Source: an uncultured bacterium
Lineage (GTDB): Bacteria > Methylomirabilota > Methylomirabilia > Methylomirabilales > CSP1-5
Direction: 5' to 3'
Assembly (NCBI GenBank): GCA_964429865.1
Contig: CAYSDK010000001.1
Coordinates: 1-60,892 of the forward strand
DNA length: 60,892 bases
In this document: piece by piece, positions 7,310 through 60,892 of the stretch
Position numbering within the stretch: position 1 is the first letter of the stretch
Layout: each line of letters starts with the position of its first letter
Notes under the pieces: model-generated
What the model saw: only the letters and a program-made list of their open reading frames with translations
Told to the model about the DNA's origin: nothing
Databases searched by the model: none
Translations under genes and position numbers: made by a program

Positions 7310-8290
7310 ATGCCCGGCATCCTTGTCCTCGGCACGATCGAGAACGGGGTCCCATCCCGCTCAACACTGGAGCTCTTGACCGGCGCGAAGAGACTCGCTG
7401 CGGGGCTTCAGGAAGGTGTCTCTGTCGGACTCCTGGGGCCAGGGGGTGCGGCGTCGCTGTACCGTTACGGGGTCGAAGTCGTCTACCGGGCCAATGATCC
7501 GCTCCTGAAGGAATATCAGGCGGATCTGTACCTGCTGGCGCTCCAGCGGATCGCCCAGGCCGCCGGCGCCAGGGTTCTCCTGCTGCCCGGAGACTCCCTC
7601 GGCCGGGACCTCGCCGCTCGCCTCGCCTTTCGCCTCAAGGCAGGCGTCGTCACGGACGTGATCGAGATTGACATCGAGGGCTCCGAAAAGATGCCGCGCT
7701 TCACACGCCCCGCGTACGGGGGCAAAGCGGCGGCGGTCATCGTTCCCAAGCGCTTTCCCGTCGTAGTGACCTTGAAGCCGCGGACCTTCGATCCCGCTGG
7801 ACCTGCGGGCCAGGGGGAAGGGAAGGAGGTCCCGGTCGAGATCTCATTGGATCCGGCCCAGGCCCGCACCCGGATGGTGGAGCGGGTCCAGGAGGAGACG
7901 ACGGGGGTCAAGCTCGAGGATGCACGGGCGGTGGTCTCCGGTGGCCGTGGACTCGGAGGGCCCGAGGGCTTTACCCTCCTGGTAGAGTTAGCCCGCATCC
8001 TTAAGGGGGCGGTGGGGGCGTCCCGGGCTGCGACCGATGCCGGGTGGGTTCCCTCATCGATGCAGGTCGGCCAGACCGGCAAGACCGTCAGCCCGGATCT
8101 CTATATCGCCGTGGGCATCTCGGGTGCGACCCAACATGTCGCGGGGATCAGCGGCGCCAGGACCATTGTGGCCATCAACGCCGATCCGGAGGCCCCCATC
8201 TTCAAGGTGGCTCACCTGGGGATCGTGGGGGATTACAAGGCCGTTCTCCCTCCCTTGATTGCGAAGTGCCGGGAACTCATGGGGAGTTGA
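7310..8290 (+). CDS. etfA: electron transfer flavoprotein alpha subunit
   Basis: C-terminal FAD-binding signature [28 protein letters not shown]. Directly follows etfB. Confidence 0.9.
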
Positions 8291-8293
8291 AGC

Positions 8294-10267
8294 ATGGAGC
8301 GCATCGCCTCGCGGGAGATCTACTGGAACATCCCGGAGCACCTGCTTCTCTACGTGCTGCTCCTGCCTTTCCTTGCTGTCTTCCTGTACGGGTGCTACCG
8401 ACGCTTTGGTGCTCTCCTGCTGGGGAGGAAGGGGGTACGGCTTGGTCAGCCGAAGGAGCGCCTGAAGGCCTTTGTTGCCCAGGCCCTCCTGCAAGGGCGG
8501 ATCGCCACAGAGCGGTATTCAGGGGTCATGCATCTCACCCTTTCCTGGGGATTTCTCGTCCTCTTCATTGCCACCACTCTCGTGGCCTTTCAGGACTACT
8601 TCGGCCTTCCCGTCCTCCAGGGTCGCTTCTACCTCTACTTCATGTCACTCACCGTGGACCTCTTCGGCGTCGCGGCGCTCTTGGGGACGCTGATGGCGGT
8701 CCTCCGGCGCTTCCTCCGTCCTCCGGCCCGCCTGGTGGAGCCGCGGCACGCCGACGGTTTCGGCTGGCTCCTCCTGCTCTTCTTAGCCGTCCTGGTGACT
8801 GGATTCCTCGTCGAGGGGCTCCGGATCATGGCGACGGCCGACCCATGGGGACCCTGGTCACCCGGAGGGTGGGTGACGGCGCTCCTCTTCCGGGGCATCG
8901 GCGTCGAGTATGCCCGGGCCTTTCACCAGGTCCTCTGGTGGGTCCATGCCGCACTCTCGTTCGGTTTCATTGCGGCGATTCCCTATACCGGCGTGCTTCA
9001 TCTCCTCACCGCCCCCGCCAACATCTTCCTGCGAAACCTCGAGCCCTCGGGTGTCGCAAGCCCCTTGGCGGTCGAGGCAGAGAAGCTCGGGGCCTCTTCG
9101 ATTCGGGATTTCTCATGGAAGGCGCTTTTGGATCTATACGCCTGCACCGAGTGTGGCCGATGCCAGGCGGTCTGTCCCGCCTGGACCACGGGAAAGCCCC
9201 TCACCCCCAAGGGGGTCATCCTCGATCTCCGGGACCACTTGACCAAGGTGTACCGGGGCGAGGAGACGCGGCGCATGGTGGGCGAGGTGATCACCGAGGA
9301 TGTCCTCTGGGCCTGCACGACGTGCGGGGCGTGCCATGAAGCCTGTCCGGTCCTGATCGAACCGATTCCGAAGATCCTGGAGATGCGCCGGCACCTGGTG
9401 ATGGAAGAGGCGACCTTCCCGGAGCAGATGCAAGAGACCCTCCGGAGCCTGGAGACGCGCGGGCACCCTTATAAGGGGGTAAGCGCCGGACGGACCGACT
9501 GGACCAAAGGGTTGCGGATTCCAGAGGCGGCGAAGCTCAAAGAGGTCGAGCTGCTCTTCTGGGTGGGCTGTGCGGGCGCCTTTGACGAGCGAGGGCAGCA
9601 GGTCACCCGGGCGATGGCGCAGGTGCTGGAGGCGGCGGAGGTGGAGTTCGCAATCCTGGGCAATGAAGAGCGGTGCACCGGAGATCCGGCCCGGCGGATC
9701 GGGAACGAGTATCTCTTTCAACTCCTCGCCCAGGAGAATATCGCAACACTCAATCGCTACCGGGTGAAGAAGATCCTGACCACCTGCCCGCACTGCTTCA
9801 ATACGATGAAGAACGAGTATGGCCAGTTCGGCGGGGAGTTCGACGTGGTGCACCACAGCCAGTTCATCGCCCACCTGCTGCGGGAGGGGCACCTGGGCCT
9901 GCGAAAACGATTCAGCGGGACGGTGGCCTTTCACGATCCGTGCTACCTCGGCCGCCACAACGGGATCTACGATGATCCGCGGTCGGTGATCGATCACTTT
10001 CCAGGGCTGCAGCGGGTGGAGATGCCCCGATGTCGCGAGAAGGGGTTTTGCTGCGGCGCCGGCGGCGGACTGATGTGGATCGAGGAGCGGATCGGCAAGC
10101 GAATGAATCTTGAGCGAACGGACGAGCTCCTGCAGACGGGAGCGGCGGTGGTGGCCACGGCCTGCCCGTTCTGCCTGACGATGATGACCGACGGCATCAC
10201 CGTGCGCGGGAAGAACCTCGCGGTCAAGGCGTTAGACCTGGCGGAACTGGTGGTGCGCGCGTTGTGA
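8294..10267 (+). CDS. membrane-anchored Fe-S oxidoreductase (NarI/DsrM-like TM domain fused to an HdrD/GlpC-like 2x[4Fe-4S] + two CCG domains); probable Etf:quinone oxidoreductase
   Basis: N-terminal ~250 aa contain several hydrophobic helices with conserved His. Ferredoxin motifs [12 protein letters not shown] and [15 protein letters not shown]-type motifs [16 protein letters not shown] and CPFCLTM. Located immediately after etfBA. Confidence 0.8.
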
Positions 10268-10273
10268 TAGTGC

Positions 10274-10322
10274 AGGACTCAGGACTGAGGGATGAGGACT
10301 GAGGGATGAGTGACCTGAGGTG
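10274..10322 (+). repeat. heptanucleotide tandem array A (7 in-phase heptads)
   Basis: The heptads are aggactc aggactg agggatg aggactg agggatg agtgacc tgaggtg. The array ends 4 nt before the ATG at 10327, and the last heptad supplies the SD-like GAGGTG. Confidence 0.85.
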
Positions 10323-10326
10323 ATAC

Positions 10327-11244
10327 ATGAGGATTGTGTCGTTATTGCCCAGCGCGACGGAGATCGTCTATCTGCTGGGACTGGGGGATCACCTCACCGG
10401 AGTGAGCCACGAGTGTGATTATCCCCGGGCGGCGCTTGGCAAGCGCAAGATCATTGCCCCTGCCTTCGAGAGCTCCGGGCTCAGCAGTCAGGAGATCGAC
10501 GGCAGTGTCCGGGCCTTCCTGGGGCGAAATGAGGGGATCTATCGGATCGATTTCGAGGCCTTGAAGGCGGCCGATCCCGACCTGATTGTGACCCAGGAGC
10601 TGTGTGATGTCTGTGCCGCCCCTTACCAGGATGTCGTGGAGGCGGCGACACACCTTTCGCGAAAACCCGAGATCCTTTCCCTGAACCCGCACCGTCTCGG
10701 GGATGTGCTCCAGGATGTCGAGCGGGTCGGGGAGGCGACGGGACGATTCCGCGAGGCAACGCAGGCTGTCGCCTCGCTCACCGAACGGATCGATCGCGTC
10801 GAGAAGCGGGCGGCCAACGCCAAGACCCGGCCACCCGTGGCGTGTCTGGAGTGGCTGGACCCGATCATGGCCTCGGGCCACTGGGTCCCAGAGATGGTGG
10901 CCCTGGCTGGCGGCAGAGAACCACTCGGAAAGGCGGGGGAGCCATCGGAACGGGTGCAGTGGGAGCGGGTCCTCTCCTGTGCACCCGAGATCCTGATCCT
11001 CATGCCCTGCGGCTTTTCCGTAGATCGGACTCTGGACGAGATCCACCTCTTGACCAATCGTCCGGGCTGGGAGGGCCTGCCGGCAGTGAGGCGGGGCAAG
11101 GTCTTTGCCGTGAACGGTCACGCCTACTTCAGCCGATCGGGACCGCGCCTGGTGGACGGAACCGAGATCTTGGCTCATCTCGTGCATCCGGAACTCTTCC
11201 GGGACCCGATTCCGGCAGGGGCAGCAACAACCGTTGACCGATGA
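10327..11244 (+). CDS. BtuF/FecB-type (periplasmic-binding-protein fold, cobalamin-binding-like) protein without a signal peptide
   Basis: It starts directly with the first strand-helix of the fold (MRIVSLLPSATEIVYLLGLGDHLTGVSHECDYP). No hydrophobic or basic leader and no lipobox. 305 aa. Confidence 0.7.
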   Translation: MRIVSLLPSATEIVYLLGLGDHLTGVSHECDYPRAALGKRKIIAPAFESSGLSSQEIDGSVRAFLGRNEGIYRIDFEALKAADPDLIVTQELCDVCAAPYQDVVEAATHLSRKPEILSLNPHRLGDVLQDVERVGEATGRFREATQAVASLTERIDRVEKRAANAKTRPPVACLEWLDPIMASGHWVPEMVALAGGREPLGKAGEPSERVQWERVLSCAPEILILMPCGFSVDRTLDEIHLLTNRPGWEGLPAVRRGKVFAVNGHAYFSRSGPRLVDGTEILAHLVHPELFRDPIPAGAATTVDR

Positions 11245-11298
11245 CCGGGGACCGATGACCGATGACGGATAACCGACGGCCGATGAACGATGACCGGG
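11236..11298 (+). repeat. heptanucleotide tandem array B (9 in-phase heptads, consensus GACCGAT)
   Basis: The heptads are gaccgat gaccggg gaccgat gaccgat gacggat aaccgac ggccgat gaacgat gaccggg. The array spans the TGA stop at 11242-11244 and the first codons of the mutase ORF. Confidence 0.85.
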
Positions 11299-12983
11299 AA
11301 GAGATAAAGCGGATCGAGGAAGCCGCGAGGGCCTGGGAAGCTGAAGTCCTGGATCCCGCGCTCGAGAGGTCGCCCGAGCGGGCCCGGGAGTTCCGGACCG
11401 TTTCGGGGCACCCCATCCGCAGGCTCTATACGCCCACCGATCTCGCCGACTTCGACTACACCCGAGACCTCGGCTTTCCGGGCCTCTCTCCCTTTACGCG
11501 GGGTGTCTACCCGACCATGTACCGGGGCAGGCTCTGGACCATGCGGATGTTCGCTGGGCACGGGGCCCCTGAGGAGACGAATCGGCGGTTCAGGTATCTC
11601 CTGGCACAGGGGCAGACCGGTCTGTCGGTCGCCTTTGACCTGCCCACCCTGATGGGGTACGACTCGGACCATCCGATGTCGCGAGGGGAGGTGGGGAAGT
11701 GCGGGGTGGCCGTCGACTCGCTGGCGGATATGGAGATCCTCTTCGACGGGATTCCGCTCCAGGACGTTACCACCTCGATGACCATCAACTCTCCGGCCGC
11801 GGTGCTCTGGGCCATGTACCTCGCGGTCTGCGAGAAACAGGGGGTGCCCTACGACCGCATCGGCGGCACCCTCCAGAATGACATCCTCAAGGAGTTCATC
11901 GCACAGAAGGAGTACGTCTTTCCCATCGAGCCCTCGATGCGCCTCGTGGTGGATACGATCCTCTTCGGGGCCCGACATCTGCCCCGGTGGCATGCGGTCA
12001 GCATCAGCGGCTATCACATCCGAGAGGCGGGGTCCACCGCGATCCAGGAACTGGCCTTTACGGTGGCCGACGGCATGGCGTATGTCGAGGCCACCATGAA
12101 GGCGGGGCTCGACGTCGATGCCTTCGCCCCTCGCCTCTCTTTCTTCTTTAATGTCCACAACGATTTCTTTGAAGAGATCGCCAAGTTTCGGGCCGCCAGG
12201 CGCGTGTGGGGGAAACTCATGCGAGAGCGGTACGGGGCAAAAGATCCGCGATCCTGGCTGCTCCGGACCCACGCCCAGACGGCGGGATGTGCGCTCACCG
12301 CCCAGCAACCGTACAACAACGTCGTTCGGGTAGCCATGCAGGCCCTGGCAGCAATCCTGGGCGGGGTGCAGTCACTCCACACCAACGCCCTGGATGAAAC
12401 GCGGGCCCTTCCCACCCAGGAGGCGGCGACGATCGCGCTCCGGACCCAGCAGATCATCGCTCACGAGACCGGGGTGACCCACACCATCGACCCCGTGGGG
12501 GGATCGTACTTCGTCGAAAGCCTCACGCGGGAGATCGAGGAGGAGGTCTGGAGCTATCTCCACAAGATCGATGACCTGGGGGGCATGGTCCGGGCGATCG
12601 AGCAAGGCTTCCCCCAGAAGGAGATTGTCGATGCCTCCTACCGGTACCAGCAGATGGTCGAGGCGGGGGAAGAGGTGGTGGTCGGCGTGAACCGGTTCGT
12701 CGCCGGGGCGGAGGAGCCGGTCTCCCTCCTTCGCATCGACCCGGAGCAGATTGCGGAGCAGCAGGTGGAGAGGATTCACCGCCTGAAGGGACGCCGGGAT
12801 AACGGAGGGGTCCAGAAGGCTCTGGACGGCCTCCGAAGGGCGGCAGAGGGGGAGGATCCCTGGGGTCAGGACCTCCTCATGCCTCGGATCCTCGAGGCGG
12901 TGCGGGCGTATGCAACCCTGGGAGAGATCATGGGGGTCTTTCGAGAGGCGTGGGGGGAGTACGTCGAAGCCGCCATCCTCTGA
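11262..12983 (+). CDS. B12-dependent acyl-CoA mutase, large (substrate-binding TIM-barrel) subunit; methylmalonyl-/isobutyryl-CoA mutase family
   Basis: Family motifs [51 protein letters not shown] and LHTNALDE. The start is ambiguous because it lies in heptad array B; an in-frame ATG also occurs at 11283. Confidence 0.88.
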
Positions 12984-13119
12984 TTGTCCATTGACGATCC
13001 AGTGAAAATGCGCTTTAAAGAGAGAAGGCGCTGTCTGCTTCAGGCAGCGGTGGATGACCACAAGCGGGGGGAAGGCGACCGGGGCCCTCTGCCAAGGATC
13101 GCCCCAGCTGAGCGATGCG

Positions 13120-13527
13120 ATGAGTGAAGAACGGAAGATCCGTGTCTTGGTGGCGAAACCGGGGCTCGACGGCCATGACCGGGGTGCCAAGGTGATTGCC
13201 CGGGCGTTCCGGGACGCGGGGTTCGAAGTGATCTATACCGGCCTTCGGCAGACGCCGGAGATGATCGTCAGCGCCGCGATCCAGGAGGACGTGGATGCCA
13301 TCGGCCTCTCCTGCCTCTCGGGAGCCCATATGTATCTCTTCCCCCGGATCGTAGAGCTGCTCCGTGAGCGTGGCGCGGACGATGTCGTCGTCTTTGGAGG
13401 CGGGACGATTCCCGACGAGGACATTGCAACCCTCAAGGAGGCAGGGATCGCCGAGATCTTTACTCCGGGAACCTCGACGTCGGTGGCAATCGATTACGTT
13501 CGGACGCACGTCCGCCAGCGGGCGTGA
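13120..13527 (+). CDS. acyl-CoA mutase small subunit (cobalamin-binding domain)
   Basis: [24 protein letters not shown] contains the DxHxxG B12-binding motif. GVSSL-type SCLSGAH and GGGTIP motifs. The ORF is open from 13054; the start is placed at ATG 13120 by comparison with typical N-termini. Confidence 0.85.
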
Positions 13528-15432: not shown

Positions 15433-15494
15433 GTCCCCGTTCGAGCCGAGGGTGGAGGGGTAGTGGGGCGGACCGAAAGCTGTCCTAATGGCAG

Positions 15495-15570
15495 GCAAAA
15501 ATACTTAATATTAAACATGAATGAATGATATATAAGTATTTGTATAATGTGATACTTATACTAGTCAATG
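15495..15570 (+). promoter_or_regulatory. AT-rich promoter/operator region upstream of the acd-meaB-CoA-transferase genes
   Basis: An AT-rich island in GC-rich DNA. TATAAT at 15543-15548. A 9-bp inverted repeat tataagtat (15531-15539) / atacttata (15552-15560) brackets it. An extra half-site atactta lies at 15501-15507. Confidence 0.5.
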
Positions 15571-15600
15571 AAGATCTAAGCAGGCCGCGGAGCTTGAGAC

Positions 15601-20685: not shown

Positions 20686-20907
20686 ATGGCCAAGGCAGAG
20701 GGAAAGAAGGCAGAGGGAAAGAAGGTAGAGGGAAAGGTGGCGAAGTTGGCCTCGCGCGAGGTCAACGGTCAGGCTGTCCGCGTGTACCCCTGTCCCGCCG
20801 ACGGGACCAAGATGAGCTGGATCCATTACTTTGGGGAGAACGGGCGGGGGAGGATGGCCCTCCGGTGTGAGAAGTGCGGGGCCATCAAGGGACGATCCGA
20901 ACTGTAA
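20686..20907 (+). CDS. small lysine-rich repeat / zinc-ribbon-like protein (73 aa), unknown function
   Basis: It has its own promoter-like element, a strong SD (GGAGGTG) and a strong terminator. The N-terminus is MAKAEGKKAEGKKVEGKV. The C-terminal part carries CP...H...CEKCG. Confidence 0.6.
   Translation: MAKAEGKKAEGKKVEGKVAKLASREVNGQAVRVYPCPADGTKMSWIHYFGENGRGRMALRCEKCGAIKGRSEL
20695..20739 (+). repeat. 3 x 15-nt in-frame tandem repeat (gcagagggaaagaag)
   Basis: Copies at 20695-20709 and 20710-20724 are identical. The third, 20725-20739 (gtagagggaaaggtg), is diverged. Together they encode AEGKK AEGKK VEGKV. Confidence 0.9.
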
Positions 20908-35700: not shown

Positions 35701-35707
35701 CGACCGC

Positions 35708-35828
35708 GTACAGAGTGCAGAATAGTGCAGCAAGGTGCAGAGTACAGCGTGCAGGGTGCAGCGGGGTGCAGAGCACAACGTGCAGAGTAGAGCGTGCAGG
35801 GTGCACGGTGAAGGGATAGAGTAGAAAG
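35708..35828 (+). repeat. heptanucleotide tandem array C (17 heptads, core GTGCAGN/GTRCAGN, three 3-nt phase spacers)
   Basis: The layout is gtacaga gtgcaga [ata] gtgcagc [aag] gtgcaga gtacagc gtgcagg gtgcagc [ggg] gtgcaga gcacaac gtgcaga gtagagc gtgcagg gtgcacg gtgaagg gatagag tagaaag, then the ATG of asd at 35829. Confidence 0.9.
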
Positions 35829-36856: not shown

Positions 36857-37591
36857 GTGCAGAACCTCACGTTGACCCTGGAATATGACGGAACCGCGTA
36901 TCACGGCTGGCAAGTCCAGCCGGGGCTGCCAACCATTCAGGGGGCCCTCGAGGAGACCGTGAAGCGCATTTCAGGCGAGGCGGTCCGGGTCATCGGCGGC
37001 GGGCGGACCGACGCAGGGGTCCACGCCCTCGGCCAGGTGGCCAACTTCCGGACGAGCAAGGGTCTCGCCCTCGACACATGGCGGCGGGCCCTCAATGGCC
37101 TGCTCCCACCCGACATCGTGGTGCACCGCGTCGAACATGCGCCTGACGAGTTTGACGCCCGCCGATTCGCCACGCACAAAACCTACCGGTACTCCATCTG
37201 GAACGCCCCGTTCCCGTCTGCCCTCGAGCGACACTGTGTTCTTCAGATCCCCGATCCTTTAGACGTCGCCTCCATGGCCGAGGGGGCGACGTCCCTGATC
37301 GGCGAGCACGATTTTTCCGCTTTTCGGGCGGCCGACGTCAGCCCGCCCCACCCCGTGCGCCGCGTGGTCGAGGCGCGCTTCGCACAGGAGGCGAATCGTC
37401 TCCACTTTATCATCACGGGAAACGGCTTCCTGAAGCACATGATCCGGATCATCGTGGGGACGCTGCTCGACGTTGGCAGAGGCAAGCTCAGCCCTGAAGG
37501 CTTGGAGCGAATCTTGCAATCCAAGGACCGCCAGAGGGCCGGGCGGACGGCGCCCCCTCACGGCTTATGCCTCATAGAGGTGATGTATTAG
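36857..37591 (+). CDS. truA: tRNA pseudouridine(38-40) synthase
   Basis: [16 protein letters not shown], catalytic [11 protein letters not shown], and [16 protein letters not shown] start. Confidence 0.93.
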
Positions 37592-37861
37592 ATGGCTATC
37601 ACTGGAAATCCTCTCGCCATAGCACGGGAAATTGGAGACGGCTTTCACTCGCTGACCACGACATCCCTGAAGAGGTACACGCCCGCCGACCTGAAGACCA
37701 TCAACACCAGCCTCCAACAGGTCCTCCGAGACGCCCGGGGAGAGGCGCCCACGCCGGGCGACGCCGAGGCGATCCGAAAGAAAAACCTCCGCCTCCAGCG
37801 CCTGAATACCGCCGTTCTGACGCTCGCCAACTACTGCCGCCAACAGCGCATTCCCATCTGA
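37592..37861 (+). CDS. hypothetical protein (89 aa), start abuts the truA stop
   Basis: The ATG follows the truA TAG immediately. The composition is protein-like ([28 protein letters not shown]...). No family was recognised. It overlaps, in another frame, the non-coding 5' extension of the leuS ORF. Confidence 0.4.
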
Positions 37862-38016
37862 CGCCTCGCGCGCGCCGTGCCGCCTCAGCGAGGCGGGGTG
37901 CCGATCCGCGCTCTCCAAGCGGCTCAGGGGAGCAGTCAAGGTCGAGGGCCGGGAGTTGCGCCGACCCAATGCCTGTGCTATCTATAGGCGGAACCACCAC
38001 GGGAGAAAGAATCGGC

Positions 38017-40596
38017 ATGGCCAGATCGTACGATTTCAAGGGCGTTGAGGCCGGGGTGCAGCAGGTCTGGGAAGAGCGGAAGGCCTTCCGGGTGACGGAG
38101 GACGCCACACAGCCGAAATACTACTGCCTAGTGATGTACCCCTATCCCTCCGGGAAGATCCACATGGGGCACGTCCGCAACTACGCGATCGGAGATGTCG
38201 TGGCGCGGTACTTCCGGATGCGCGGCCACAACGTGCTCCACCCGATGGGATGGGATTCCTTCGGCCTGCCGGCAGAGAATGCGGCCATCGAACACGGGGT
38301 GCATCCGGCGACCTGGACGGTCGACAACATTACGTATATGCGGACGCAACTCAAGCGGATGGGCCTCTCCTACGACTGGGATCGCGAGATCACGTGTAGC
38401 GATCCCGAGTACTATCGGTGGAATCAATGGCTCTTTCTCAAGATGTATGAGAAGGGGCTCGCGTACAAGAGGCCGGCATTGGTCAACTGGTGCGATGTCT
38501 GCCAAACGGTCCTCGCCAACGAACAGGTGGAAGGGGGGCGGTGCTGGCGCGATGACTCGGTGGTCATCCAGAAGGAGCTGGATCAATGGTTCTTGAAGAT
38601 CACCGCCTACGCCGAGGAGCTCCTCACAGGGCTGGATCGATTGCCAGGCTGGCCCGAGCGGGTCAAGGCGATGCAGCGGAACTGGATCGGGAAGAGCGTC
38701 GGCGCCCAAGTGGACTTTCCGATGGTGAGCGGCGGCCCCCCCATCGCTATCTTCACGACCCGGCAGGACACCCTCTACGGGGCCACCTTCATGGTGCTGG
38801 CGCCGGAGCATCCACTGGCCCGGGAGCTGGCCCGCGGAAGGCCGGAGGTCGAAGGCTTCATCGAGCGGATGCGGACGGAAGACCGCCTGGTCCGGACCGC
38901 GGCCGAGAGCGAAAAGGAGGGGGTGTTTACCGGCGCCTTCGCCATCAATCCGTTGACGCAAGAGAAGATCCCCATCTGGCTCGCCAATTTCGTCCTGTTG
39001 GAATACGGGACCGGCGCCATCATGTCGGTGCCCGCGCACGACCAGCGGGATTTCGAATTCGCCAAGAAATACCACCTCCCGATCCGGCTGGTCATTAATC
39101 CAGAAGAAGGCACCCTCGTCGCCGCGGACCTGGAAAAGGCCTATGAAGGCGAGGGGCTCATGGTGAATTCGGGGCCCTTCAACGGGTTGCCCAGTGGGGA
39201 AGGGCGGGAGGCGGTCGCTCGATATCTGGAAGAGCGGAGGATTGGCAGCGGAGCGGTGAACTATCGGTTGAGGGACTGGGGGATCTCCCGGCAGCGGTAC
39301 TGGGGGACCCCCATCCCCATCATCTACTGTGACCGGTGCGGCACGGTCCCGGTTCTCGAGCGCGACCTGCCGGTCCTGCTCCCTCGGGACGTCGAGATCA
39401 CCATGAAGGGGGGGTCCCCGCTGGCCCGGGTCAAACGCTTTGTCAACGTGAGCTGTCCGACGTGTCACGGGCCGGCCCGTCGAGAGACCGATACGATGGA
39501 TACCTTTGTCGATTCCTCCTGGTACTTCCTCCGCTTCTGCAGCCCCAAGGAGGAGAACCGCCCCCTCGATCCCGCGAAGGTGGCGCACTGGATGGCAGTG
39601 GATCAGTATATCGGGGGGATCGAGCACGCGGTCCTCCACCTGCTCTACGCACGATTCTTTACGCGGGTGATGCGGGACCTAGGGTTGGTTGCGATTGACG
39701 AGCCGTTCGTGAATCTCCTCACGCAAGGCATGGTCTGCAAGGAGACCTACCGGTGCCCCACCCATGGCTACCGGCTCCCCGAAGAGGTGAATGCCAAGGG
39801 GCGGTGCACCGCGTGTGGCGAGCCGGTAGAGATAGGCCGGACCGAGAAGATGTCCAAGTCGAAGAAGAACGTCGTGGACCCGGACGACCTGATGAATCGC
39901 TATGGGACGGATACCGCCCGCGTCTTCTCGCTCTTCGCCGCGCCGCCGGAGAAGGACCTGGAATGGTCCGACAAAGGGGTCGAGGGGGCCTTCCGGTTCC
40001 TCAACCGGGTATACCGGCTGGTGGACGGATGGGCGGAGGAGCTCTGCCGTCCGGTGAAACCCGTCTCCTTCGCCGCCCTGACGGTGGGCCGGGCGCTCTA
40101 CCAGAAGGCCCACTTCACCATCAAGAAGGTGACCGAGGATCTCGACCGGAATTTTCACTTCAACACGGCCATCGCCGCGCTCATGGAGCTCGTAAACAGC
40201 CTGGGGCAATGTGATCTCGGTGGCACGCCAGAAGAACGGGAAGAAAAAAGGGCGGTGGTGCGCTTTGCGGTCGAGACCCTGCTCGTCCTCCTCGCTCCCT
40301 TTGCCCCCCACCTGGCGGAAGAGTTGTGGCAGCGCCTCAGCCATTCCCGGAGCATCTCAGAAGCATCGTGGCCTGCGTATAGCACCGAGGTGATTCAGCG
40401 AGAGGAAATCCTGGTGGTCGTCCAGGTCAATGGGAAGCTCAGAAGCCGGCTCCTGCTGCCCGCCGATGCCGAAGAGGAAGCGCTCCGGACGGCGGCGCTC
40501 CAGGACAGCCGGATCCAGACGTGGCTCGAGGGAAGACAGGTGGTCCGGGTCGTGGTGGTTCCCAAGAAACTGGTCAACATCGTGACCGACGAGTAA
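38017..40596 (+). CDS. leuS: leucine--tRNA ligase
   Basis: [14 protein letters not shown] (HIGH), KMSKSKKN (KMSKS), and the CP1 editing domain. The start is at ATG 38017 (GGGAGAAAG SD); the upstream 150 in-frame codons look non-coding. Confidence 0.96.
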
Positions 40597-40750
40597 CAGC
40601 TGTCAGCCATCCGCTGTCAGCAGTCAGCCATCAGCAGCCAGAGACGTGAGACCGGAGACGGGAGATACCAGACGATAGTCTCCGCTCTCCAGTCTCAAGT
40701 CTCCGGGCTCCGGTCTAGTCCCTGACGGCTGACGGCAGACAGCTGAAGAG
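40597..40750 (+). repeat. heptanucleotide tandem array D: 22 in-phase heptads arranged as [CAGCNNT]6 [NNGAGAC]5 [TCCNNTC]6-7 [TGACGGC]3 (a palindrome of arrays)
   Basis: The heptads are cagctgt cagccat ccgctgt cagcagt cagccat cagcagc cagagac gtgagac cggagac gggagat accagac gatagtc tccgctc tccagtc tcaagtc tccgggc tccggtc tagtccc tgacggc tgacggc agacagc tgaagag. No indel occurs over 154 nt. The right-hand blocks are reverse complements of the left-hand blocks. Confidence 0.9.
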
Positions 40751-40765
40751 CTGCGGGGAGTGTGC

Positions 40766-60520: not shown

Positions 60521-60892
60521 ACAACCCTCACGCTGACGTCGATGCTAGGCCTGGCAGGCGCCGAACTCGCCGCACGGATGACCTGCCCTGATCCTCGATC
60601 GATTTTTCTCTTGTAGCACCTCAGGGTACTTGTGGGCAACTCCAAAGTCGGCTCGCACCGACGCCAAGACATCCTTTCCCATTCGTGGGTGTCATTTCAG
60701 GGGGATTTGTATAGCTAAGCTTAAACTTTATAGAATATAGTATAACTATCTGTTATTATTGTTATGGATAAACATGAGATGACGAGGGTTCACGAAACCT
60801 TCGAGTCGTAAAAGCCTCAGGTGTGCGTTCGATGGCAAGACCAGGCTTGTTGGCTTCCTTGGCCCGCTCCTGGGTTGGAACGGGCCTGGCCG

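Follow-up and report, generated by a model that had tools for sequence, protein, structure and literature searches.

Rapidly changing heptanucleotide arrays at gene junctions of a Methylomirabilota contig, probably long simple sequence repeats formed by slippage

Why should a single bacterial gene be bordered on both sides by tandem copies of a seven-nucleotide unit, one series ending just before its start codon and the other running across its stop codon into the next gene? The question is raised by a 60,892-nt stretch of DNA (contig CAYSDK010000001.1 of GenBank assembly GCA_964429865.1; the whole stretch is called the window below), whose nearest genomes are metagenome-assembled genomes (MAGs) of Candidatus Methylomirabilota / Methylomirabilales (NC10). 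The gene encodes a Peripla_BP_2 (BtuF-like) protein and lies between the genes for an Fe-S oxidoreductase and for the large subunit of a methylmalonyl-CoA-mutase-family enzyme. We consider it fairly likely that the arrays are heptanucleotide long simple sequence repeats (SSRs), made and kept changing by slipped-strand mispairing at intercistronic proto-repeats.

The upstream array (10274-10322, + strand) reads AGGACTC, AGGACTG, AGGGATG, AGGACTG, AGGGATG, AGTGACC and TGAGGTG, followed by ATAC and the ATG at 10327, and the heptads therefore come to within 4 nt of the start codon, as an earlier note made from the sequence alone had stated. That note counted seven heptads in perfect phase: the phase holds for all seven, but only the first five (10274-10308) form a clear array, effectively the 14-mer AGGACTGAGGGATG in 2.7 copies, while the last two are degenerate, being in phase only and matching the unit at no more than 4/7 positions. 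Tandem Repeats Finder (TRF) places the repeat at 10281-10320 (period 14, 2.7 copies, score 62), and the lag-7 identity of the array is 27/42. The downstream array (11236-11298, + strand) is the more regular: direct reading and re-phasing by script both return the nine in-phase heptads proposed, GACCGAT, GACCGGG, GACCGAT, GACCGAT, GACGGAT, AACCGAC, GGCCGAT, GAACGAT and GACCGGG, which hold the stop codon of the BtuF-like gene (11242-11244), five ATGs, two mini open reading frames (ORFs) and the first mutase codons. Here TRF reports 11230-11296, period 7, 9.6 copies and a score of 78, and the lag-7 identity is 40/56, with lags 5, 6, 8 and 9 giving 4-13.

We then compared the whole window with 200 dinucleotide-preserving shuffles, using a 42-nt sliding window and a threshold of at least 28/42 lag-7 matches. 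The threshold was reached at 45 positions against a shuffle mean of 0.01 (maximum 1), and for the other periods from 4 to 13 at 0 positions over the whole window. By TRF scores, lag-7 counts and shuffles alike, both arrays are head-to-tail 7-nt copies beyond chance and hence statistically real tandem repeats of period 7 at both junctions of the BtuF-like gene. Both also place stop codons in all three frames, in agreement with the earlier note, whose further statement that each heptad carries TGA proved too strong: in the downstream array a stop codon stands at 6/9 heptad junctions (five TGA, one TAA).

A tandem repeat in a metagenomic contig could be an artefact of assembly or sequencing, and the arrays evidently do trouble short-read assemblers, since some contigs (L011, L100) end in or near them. 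At least 23 contigs encode precisely this BtuF-like protein, and we compared ten of them, from different JGI and SRA samples. Across these ten assemblies, made by JGI and Logan/SRA pipelines, the upstream array is base-identical in 9/9 of those that include the upstream spacer, and the downstream array occurs as two discrete alleles: measured between fixed anchors, it spans 75 nt in the window and 7 assemblies and 68 nt in two others (L001 and L002), exactly one GACCGAT fewer. NCBI and ENA MAGs of relatives, moreover, carry arrays at the same junctions. Recurrence across ten assemblies from independent samples led us to reject an artefact, to which we give practically no chance. At position 1 of both L011 and L100 the short-read contig ends inside or beside heptad arrays or hairpins; such elements break up assemblies, and MAGs probably contain too few of them.

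For relatives, we graded loci by the identity of their BtuF-like protein to that of the window: L091/L092 (97%), L011 (94%), L095 (93%), L226 (91%), L093/L094 (88%), L096-L098 (74%) and L099 (72%). The order of genes around the Fe-S oxidoreductase is the same in all of them, and array length differs in 7-nt steps. In L011 the downstream array measures 54 nt, 21 nt shorter than in the window, and by alignment the upstream array of the window is the L095 version plus one extra 14-nt unit. The arrays thus show the whole-unit copy variation among strains and relatives that is expected of long SSRs (75, 68 and 54 nt downstream, one 14-mer upstream).

Variation in unit steps could also be that of a phase-variable contingency locus, in which gain or loss of a unit, 7 not being a multiple of 3, would switch the mutase or the BtuF-like protein. 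Such switching might be glimpsed in L011, where the first TGA has become TGG and the BtuF-like ORF extends 7 codons (WPTTDNR) into the array, ending in an ATGA overlap with the mutase start, and in an in-frame upstream ATG (11262 in the window) that is available only at some copy numbers. However, with the BtuF-like stop (11242) before it and the conserved mutase ATG (11283) after it, the array is placed where unit changes shift neither main ORF, both proteins are intact in all variants seen, and the genes serve housekeeping metabolism rather than surface or restriction functions. Contingency loci switch on and off through a repeat within an ORF or promoter, which is not the arrangement found here, and we regard phase variation as highly implausible.

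Where the downstream array came from can be read from L095. This relative has no spacer at all: the BtuF-like stop and the mutase start overlap as ATGA within cacCGATGACCGATGACCgg, so that ...GTT CAC CGA TGA overlaps ATG ACC GAT GAC CGG, with two to three GACCGAT-like units already present. The BtuF-like protein of the window ends in V-D-R-stop (GAC CGA TGA), and most orthologues end in V-D-R or V-H-R (GAC/CAC CGA TGA). The unexpanded overlap and the conserved ends together show that the nine-unit array arose by amplification of this very stop/start junction (GAC CGA TGA / ATG ACC GAT GAC C). The spacer of L091/L092 is also 38 nt long, with a unit order different from that of the window, and L096 and L099 have an unrelated spacer of 58-60 nt with a normal Shine-Dalgarno sequence (SD). 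The idea that arrays bracketing the BtuF-like gene are a conserved design did not survive this comparison, given that the 93% relative is essentially without arrays and others have different units or a hairpin.

The same array complicates the start of the mutase gene. All five ATGs listed in the earlier note are present (11241, 11255, 11262, 11283 and 11290), and the ambiguity that it saw narrows to two of them, as the other three lie in another frame or run into a stop within 5-6 codons. ATG 11241 is in the mutase frame, but meets a stop at 11256 (mini-ORF 11241-11258, MTGDR-stop); neither 11255 (mini-ORF 11255-11272, MTDDG-stop) nor 11290 is in frame, and each reaches a stop after five codons. 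ATG 11283 aligns with the mutase start in all relatives, and in L011 and L093 the mutase frame is closed by a stop only 2-3 codons before it. We take ATG 11283 as the best-supported start by orthology and 11262, which would add the array-encoded residues MTDNRRP, as the sole other viable one; gene callers give 566 or 573 aa on identical or near-identical sequence. No canonical SD precedes 11283 in the array-bearing subclade (L096 has GGCGGAG and L099 GGAGGAG), and initiation of the mutase probably depends on translational coupling. Expansion would have replaced a tight ATGA coupling by a 38-nt spacer that lacks a canonical SD, and the copied ATGA overlaps (ATG 11241/TGA 11242 and ATG 11255/TGA 11256) could relay terminating ribosomes to 11283 by way of the mini-ORFs MTGDR and MTDDG.

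The upstream junction has a different history. In L095 the spacer between the Fe-S stop and the BtuF-like ATG is 45 nt long and holds a single AGGACTGAGGGATG. L091/L092, L226, L096-L098 and L099 have spacers of 87-150 nt built as (GGTTCAY)n, a loop and (RTGAACC)n, and L093/L094 and L011 have (GTCCGAN)n, a loop and (TCGGACN)n. These inverted heptad arrays are predicted to fold into long hairpins, most clearly in L093 (-60.2 kcal/mol, z = -7.05), where six paired bases and one mismatch repeat along the stem. The hairpins of L226, L096, L011 and L099 have z-scores of -3.2 to -4.3, none of 200 shuffles being as stable in these four or in L093, and that of L091 has z = -2.47. No hairpin of this type is found in the upstream spacer of the window (z = -2.26) or of L095 (z = +0.41), and the window's arrays fold no better than shuffles either upstream or downstream (z = +0.45 for the latter). 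The alignments thus show a junction at which the unit sequence turns over fast while position and period persist, and at which the window and L095 have lost the hairpin.

Amid this turnover one element stays constant. The SD of the BtuF-like gene, GAGGTG (10317-10322, + strand), lies 4 nt before ATG 10327 in the degenerate tail of the array, and had been taken as supplied by the array. Its core GAGGT (GGAGGT in most) precedes the BtuF-like ATG in L091, L093, L095, L096, L099, L226 and L011. Because it is conserved despite unrelated spacers, the SD is, on this comparative evidence, ancestral and older than the upstream array. Just before the BtuF-like ATG of L096 (9985-10000) and L099 (9984-10000) we also observed a small predicted hairpin, CCCACC-GGA-GGUGGG, which beside the large heptad hairpin is a possible SD-sequestering element.

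Are such arrays peculiar to the BtuF-like gene? On a crude, approximate gene map, four same-strand intergenic spacers of the window consist almost wholly of heptads: the two flanking the BtuF-like gene, LeuD->Asd and LeuS->LptE. A third array of about 14 direct GTGCAGN units (35714-35815, + strand; 55/95 lag-7 matches) fills the LeuD(Aconitase_C)->Asd spacer (35701-35828). The LeuS->LptE spacer contains nested inverted arrays (40597-40757, + strand) of the form (CTGTCAG/CAGTCAG)n (GAGACGG)n loop (AGTCTCC)n (CTGACGG)n, ahead of the LptE start (GTG 40766, + strand); they are predicted to form one long hairpin with a mismatch at about every 7th nt (minimum free energy -86.7 kcal/mol, z = -3.74, 0/200 shuffles as stable). 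These two further arrays have little or no TGA. Each junction has units of its own (AGGACTG/AGGGATG, GACCGAT, GTGCAGN, and CTGTCAG with GAGACGG), no unit was seen dispersed over several loci within the window, and no heptads were found in its AT-rich, promoter-like spacers.

The same two junctions are occupied in relatives, by GTTCA-type heptad hairpins at LeuD->Asd in L104 and L105 and by other inverted arrays of 7- or 8-nt units at LeuS->LptE in L103, L104 and L105. L099 and L105 lie on one contig (JBHIAH010000004.1), as do L093 and L104 on another; the GTTCA unit of the former pair accordingly recurs at different loci, in the manner of a dispersed family. We rejected a miniature inverted-repeat transposable element or other mobile element as the source, as hairpins at different junctions share the heptad unit only and neither loops nor ends. 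Relatives also have period-8 arrays, namely four copies of AAGGGATN in the loop of the L091 hairpin (9901-9934), inverted GCTAGAAT / AGCGTCCT arrays at LeuS->LptE in L103 (3925-3996) and a further array in L104 (13863-13897), from which we conclude that the process making the arrays is not strictly heptameric. The conditions that the earlier note named for giving up the arrays as real have thus turned out in their favour: independent assemblies repeat them, their length changes by whole units, and more of them stand at other gene junctions of the window and of relatives.

The recurrence of hairpins suggests an alternative account, namely that what selection maintains is an intercistronic hairpin, in RNA or DNA, conserved at the junction of the ETF (electron transfer flavoprotein)/Fe-S genes with the B12 module. 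It might serve as a terminator lacking a U-tract, an RNase processing site or a 3'-end stabiliser; heptads would merely be the way in which stems are built, and the direct arrays of the window would be decayed remnants of little function. Long hairpins do occupy this junction in L091/L092, L226, L096-L098, L099, L093/L094 and L011 with two unrelated arm sequences, mostly more stable than any shuffle, and similar ones occur at 40597-40757 of the window, at LeuD->Asd (L104/L105) and at LeuS->LptE (L103/L105). Yet the window and L095 manage the same genes without a hairpin, and the L104 hairpin is no better than shuffles (z = -1.29). We detected no promoter and no intrinsic or U-tract terminator in 9800-11800, and the relatives' hairpins lack T-runs. 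In a comparison of 18 hairpins, moreover, the mean stability of the sense strand equals that of the antisense strand and neither is favoured in G-U pairs, a result that gives no consistent sign of selection at the RNA level. No Rfam 15 covariance model matched the arrays at gathering score. On balance, selection for the hairpin is possible, though we lean towards thinking it unlikely.

A second alternative would assign the function to the heptads themselves, as repeated sites bound by a trans-acting factor. Each of its monomers would recognise about 7 nt (as in, e.g., a cold-shock-domain protein), or it would recognise GGA motifs (CsrA-like), and it would control translation of the BtuF-like protein and the mutase. 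The position of the arrays, which abut or overlap a ribosome-binding region and start codon, would suit such a factor, as would GGA/GGAC at 7-nt spacing in the upstream units of the window, L011 and L093; arrays other than the upstream one lack GGA. The idea matches proposals made for the TAACTGA repeats of Beggiatoaceae, where translational roles have been suggested and CspB is noted to bind heptamer repeats with one protein to each unit (PMC4679880), and for the recF/recO heptamers of Nostoc, where eight copies of GAC(C/T)AAT overlap the recO start codon (bioRxiv 10.1101/2022.06.06.494920). Against it, the units differ among all four window junctions and, at one junction, among relatives at 88-97% identity, L095 is almost free of repeats, no candidate binding protein was identified, and the 6/7 likeness of window units to those of Nostoc is within chance by our own estimate. 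We therefore judge a trans-acting reader to be very unlikely.

Slippage, our favoured explanation, is supported by the distribution of periods. Among tandem arrays in about 228 kb of clade loci, a period of 7, 14, 21 or 28 was found in 14/23 intergenic arrays versus 5/45 coding ones, the non-triplet period being mainly non-coding as in other long SSRs. TRF returned 9 period-7 rows for the 61-kb window versus 29 for 630 kb of loci from other phyla. Arrays of this kind are nonetheless found farther afield. Scanning JGI metagenomes for GTTCANNGTTCANNGTTCA gave at least 120 stretches. The 80 of these loci that were read hold 84 arrays; for 11 of them a TGAAC partner in inverted orientation lies no more than 220 nt away, the contigs having a G+C content of 40-62%, and one array lies between a stop codon and the apparent start of an ATP-synthase gamma gene. 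Heptad arrays at gene junctions are not confined to the Methylomirabilota clade.

Three of these distant loci deserve separate mention. The soil metagenome contig Ga0134125_10000138 (L116, locus 1337-1567) carries about 15-17 nearly perfect GGTTCAC heptads, the longest example, among the matches listed, of the unit found in the relatives' hairpins; TGAAC repeats run on the + strand from 1358 to 1460, and an opposed GTTCA-type array lies about 80 nt away at 1542-1567. In a Binatia-labelled MAG (L012, 4916-5000) inverted GCAGTAA/TTACTGC arms with a GGGGGTTTTTCTCC centre follow the BtuF-like stop, and in a Planctomycetales-labelled MAG (L020, 3709-3742) five copies of CCACGAG precede the BtuF-like ATG. 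The BtuF-like proteins of these two MAGs are 54-56% identical to that of the window.

Taken as a mechanism, slippage at short proto-repeats in same-strand intercistronic junctions would let arrays expand and turn over rapidly. The arrays would be transcribed inside polycistronic mRNA, and the lengthening and variation of spacers, as well as the stops in three frames, would be by-products of the repeat. Hairpins in relatives and at 40597-40757 would be intercistronic stem-loops that may affect mRNA 3' ends or stability, and no sequence-specific reader of heptads need be invoked.

Several observations weigh against so simple an account. Slippage alone fails to explain how the two arms of a hairpin stay complementary while their sequence changes, or why the GTTCA unit stands at two junctions of JBHIAH010000004.1 and on many unrelated metagenome contigs; concerted change of the arms and recurrence of the unit hint at an additional process, such as template switching or gene conversion, or at selection. 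That relatives from 72% to 97% retain the upstream hairpin resembles conservation of structure. The census of periods drew on partly orthologous clade sequence rather than on a whole genome, and any function of the arrays in translational coupling or as mRNA hairpins is throughout something that we infer.

These difficulties leave room for a bolder proposal, which we consider quite unlikely: that heptad-built elements (direct arrays, and long hairpins of 6 paired positions and 1 mismatch per unit) keep particular junctions occupied in Methylomirabilota and, as it appears, in further uncultivated bacteria of soil and groundwater, with position and period conserved and sequence repeatedly replaced in both arms in concert, through a dedicated generating or homogenising process or a heptad-reading factor. 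If this were true, template switching within quasi-palindromes could be the dedicated process; alternatively, a heptad-reading factor would tune the expression ratio of neighbouring genes in heritable 7-nt steps.

Whichever account holds, this locus matters since neither the preference for 7 nt nor the function of heptanucleotide repeats is established (PMC4692102, PMC4679880). It provides an unusually clean natural series that begins with an unexpanded ATGA overlap, continues with alleles one unit apart and reaches 9-unit arrays and long heptad hairpins, at 72-97% identity of the flanking protein, and the birth, growth and replacement of arrays can therefore be traced directly. The series would allow tests of how an array affects translational coupling or mRNA stability, and the heptad-built hairpins, with their conserved position and replaced sequence, are the part of most follow-up value. 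In practical terms, arrays mislead gene callers (as with the mutase) and break short-read contigs.

The genes that surround the arrays follow one another on the + strand: ETF alpha (7310-8290), the CCG/4Fe-4S oxidoreductase (8294-10267; Pfam CCG 1.3e-34, Fer4 domains), which ends in TGA before the upstream spacer, the 305-aa Peripla_BP_2 protein (10327-11244; Pfam PF01497, 1.5e-22), whose orthologues are named "cobalamin-binding protein" in the source records of relatives, the mutase large subunit (11283-12983; Pfam MM_CoA_mutase, 1.5e-222), its B12-binding subunit (13054-13527) and a thiolase. The BtuF-like protein begins directly with MRIVSLLPSATE and by eye has no obvious signal peptide, and its gene is embedded among mutase subunits, with MeaB also downstream in relatives; on these grounds the protein's setting suggests cytoplasmic B12 handling rather than periplasmic uptake. 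By contrast, a 58% NC10 homologue (L101) neighbours a TonB receptor and an ABC transporter.

Elsewhere in the window, its sole Rfam match is a SAM riboswitch (1124-1249, + strand; RF00162, 84.4 bits, E = 1.6e-18) upstream of a gene at 1567-2847, to which a PALP-domain enzyme, with ThiS next in order, corresponds in relatives; a minus-strand ORF at 1211-1489 on our gene map is probably spurious. A coding 15-nt repeat, AAGGCAGAGGGAAAG in three copies (20692-20736, + strand), lies inside ORF 20686-20907. It is translated into KAEGK-type repeats in the N-terminal part of a product of 73 aa, whose C-terminal part has a CxxC...CxxC-like segment, and L091 and L092 have an ORF of this length in the same place. 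The LeuS ORF (37567-40596, + strand) runs over 1009 open codons, the first of them shared with the end of truA, and has synthetase domains only from residue 164; relatives have a separate 89-aa ORF followed by a LeuS of 859-900 aa, and the LeuS start assigned in the window may be wrong, or the two ORFs may be fused. The exact TruA protein of the window was found in no record. Two strongly AT-rich stretches, 15433-15600 (e.g. ATGAATGAATGATATATAAGTATTTGTATAATGTGATAC) and 60521-60892, stand out from the 63% G+C of the remaining window; neither has an Rfam match, and no tRNA was found in the window.

How, finally, do the arrays compare with heptanucleotide repeats already described? Mazel et al. 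reportedly described the cyanobacterial short tandemly repeated repetitive (STRR) heptanucleotides in 1990. CCCCAGT/GGGGAYT, TTGGTCA and CAACAGT are STRR units. The earlier note's likening of our arrays to STRR sequences in a non-cyanobacterial host is sound, as the heptamers are of the same sort and the host belongs to Candidatus Methylomirabilota: in both cases 7-nt tandem units are mostly intergenic, often within operons, adjoin or overlap starts, form several unit families per genome and include some inverted arrangements. In the relatives, a GTTCA-type unit stands at no fewer than two junctions of one contig, as a unit of a dispersed family would. However, STRR hosts are (heterocystous) cyanobacteria, every window junction has its own unit with no dispersed family seen in these 61 kb, and the window units fall outside the STRR families, with a best likeness of 6/7, which is within chance. 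Heptamers of Nostoc PCC 7120 are GGGGA(C/T)T (PMC4692102) and, near start codons, GAC(C/T)AAT and TTTTGAA (bioRxiv 10.1101/2022.06.06.494920). We set aside homology with such units: GACCGAT/GACCAAT and GAGGACT/GGGGACT agree at 6/7 positions, and we gave these matches no weight because about one is expected by chance by our own estimate (7 rotations on each of 2 strands, with about 10 known and about 8 window units).

Beyond cyanobacteria, heptanucleotide repeats are the most abundant class of long SSRs in many bacteria, with polymerase slippage as their proposed origin (Mrazek et al. 2007, as summarised in PMC4679880 and PMC4692102), and our arrays share with prokaryotic long SSRs, as those summaries present them, the over-represented period of 7, the intergenic bias and that proposed origin. 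The GGGAATC arrays of Xanthomonas are for the most part flanked by the same genes in two related species, vary widely in length and sequence and are in some cases inverted (PMC4692102), all of which applies here; they differ in having one G-rich, quadruplex-prone unit, whereas ours are diverse and not prone to quadruplexes. The TAACTGA direct repeats of marine Beggiatoaceae, some cyanobacteria and Bacteroidetes, for which translational regulation was proposed, stand upstream of start codons at 169 loci (PMC4679880). Position directly upstream of starts and a TGA giving stops in all forward frames are common to both, and the GGACTGA/GGGATGA units of the window share the CTGA/ATGA end. There, however, a single unit is fixed; here no unit is, none is TAACTGA, and arrays also overlap a stop/start junction. 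Geobacter metallireducens, again a GC-rich, non-cyanobacterial environmental host, has tandem heptanucleotides that include palindromic arrangements, GGACCGG in four copies at 49 loci and MTYCTGA in five copies in palindromic sites, annotated as putative regulatory elements (PMC2700814). Those are conserved multi-locus families of fixed copy number found by BLAST; ours are locus-specific and copy-variable. Our literature search on heptamers in Methylomirabilis/NC10, confined to one searchable library, found no report of such repeats. Judged by host and units, which differ from all of these, the window arrays are analogous to the known heptanucleotide repeats and members of no named family: they add a further phylum to a known and poorly understood kind of repeat, of which they are a new example rather than a new mechanism.

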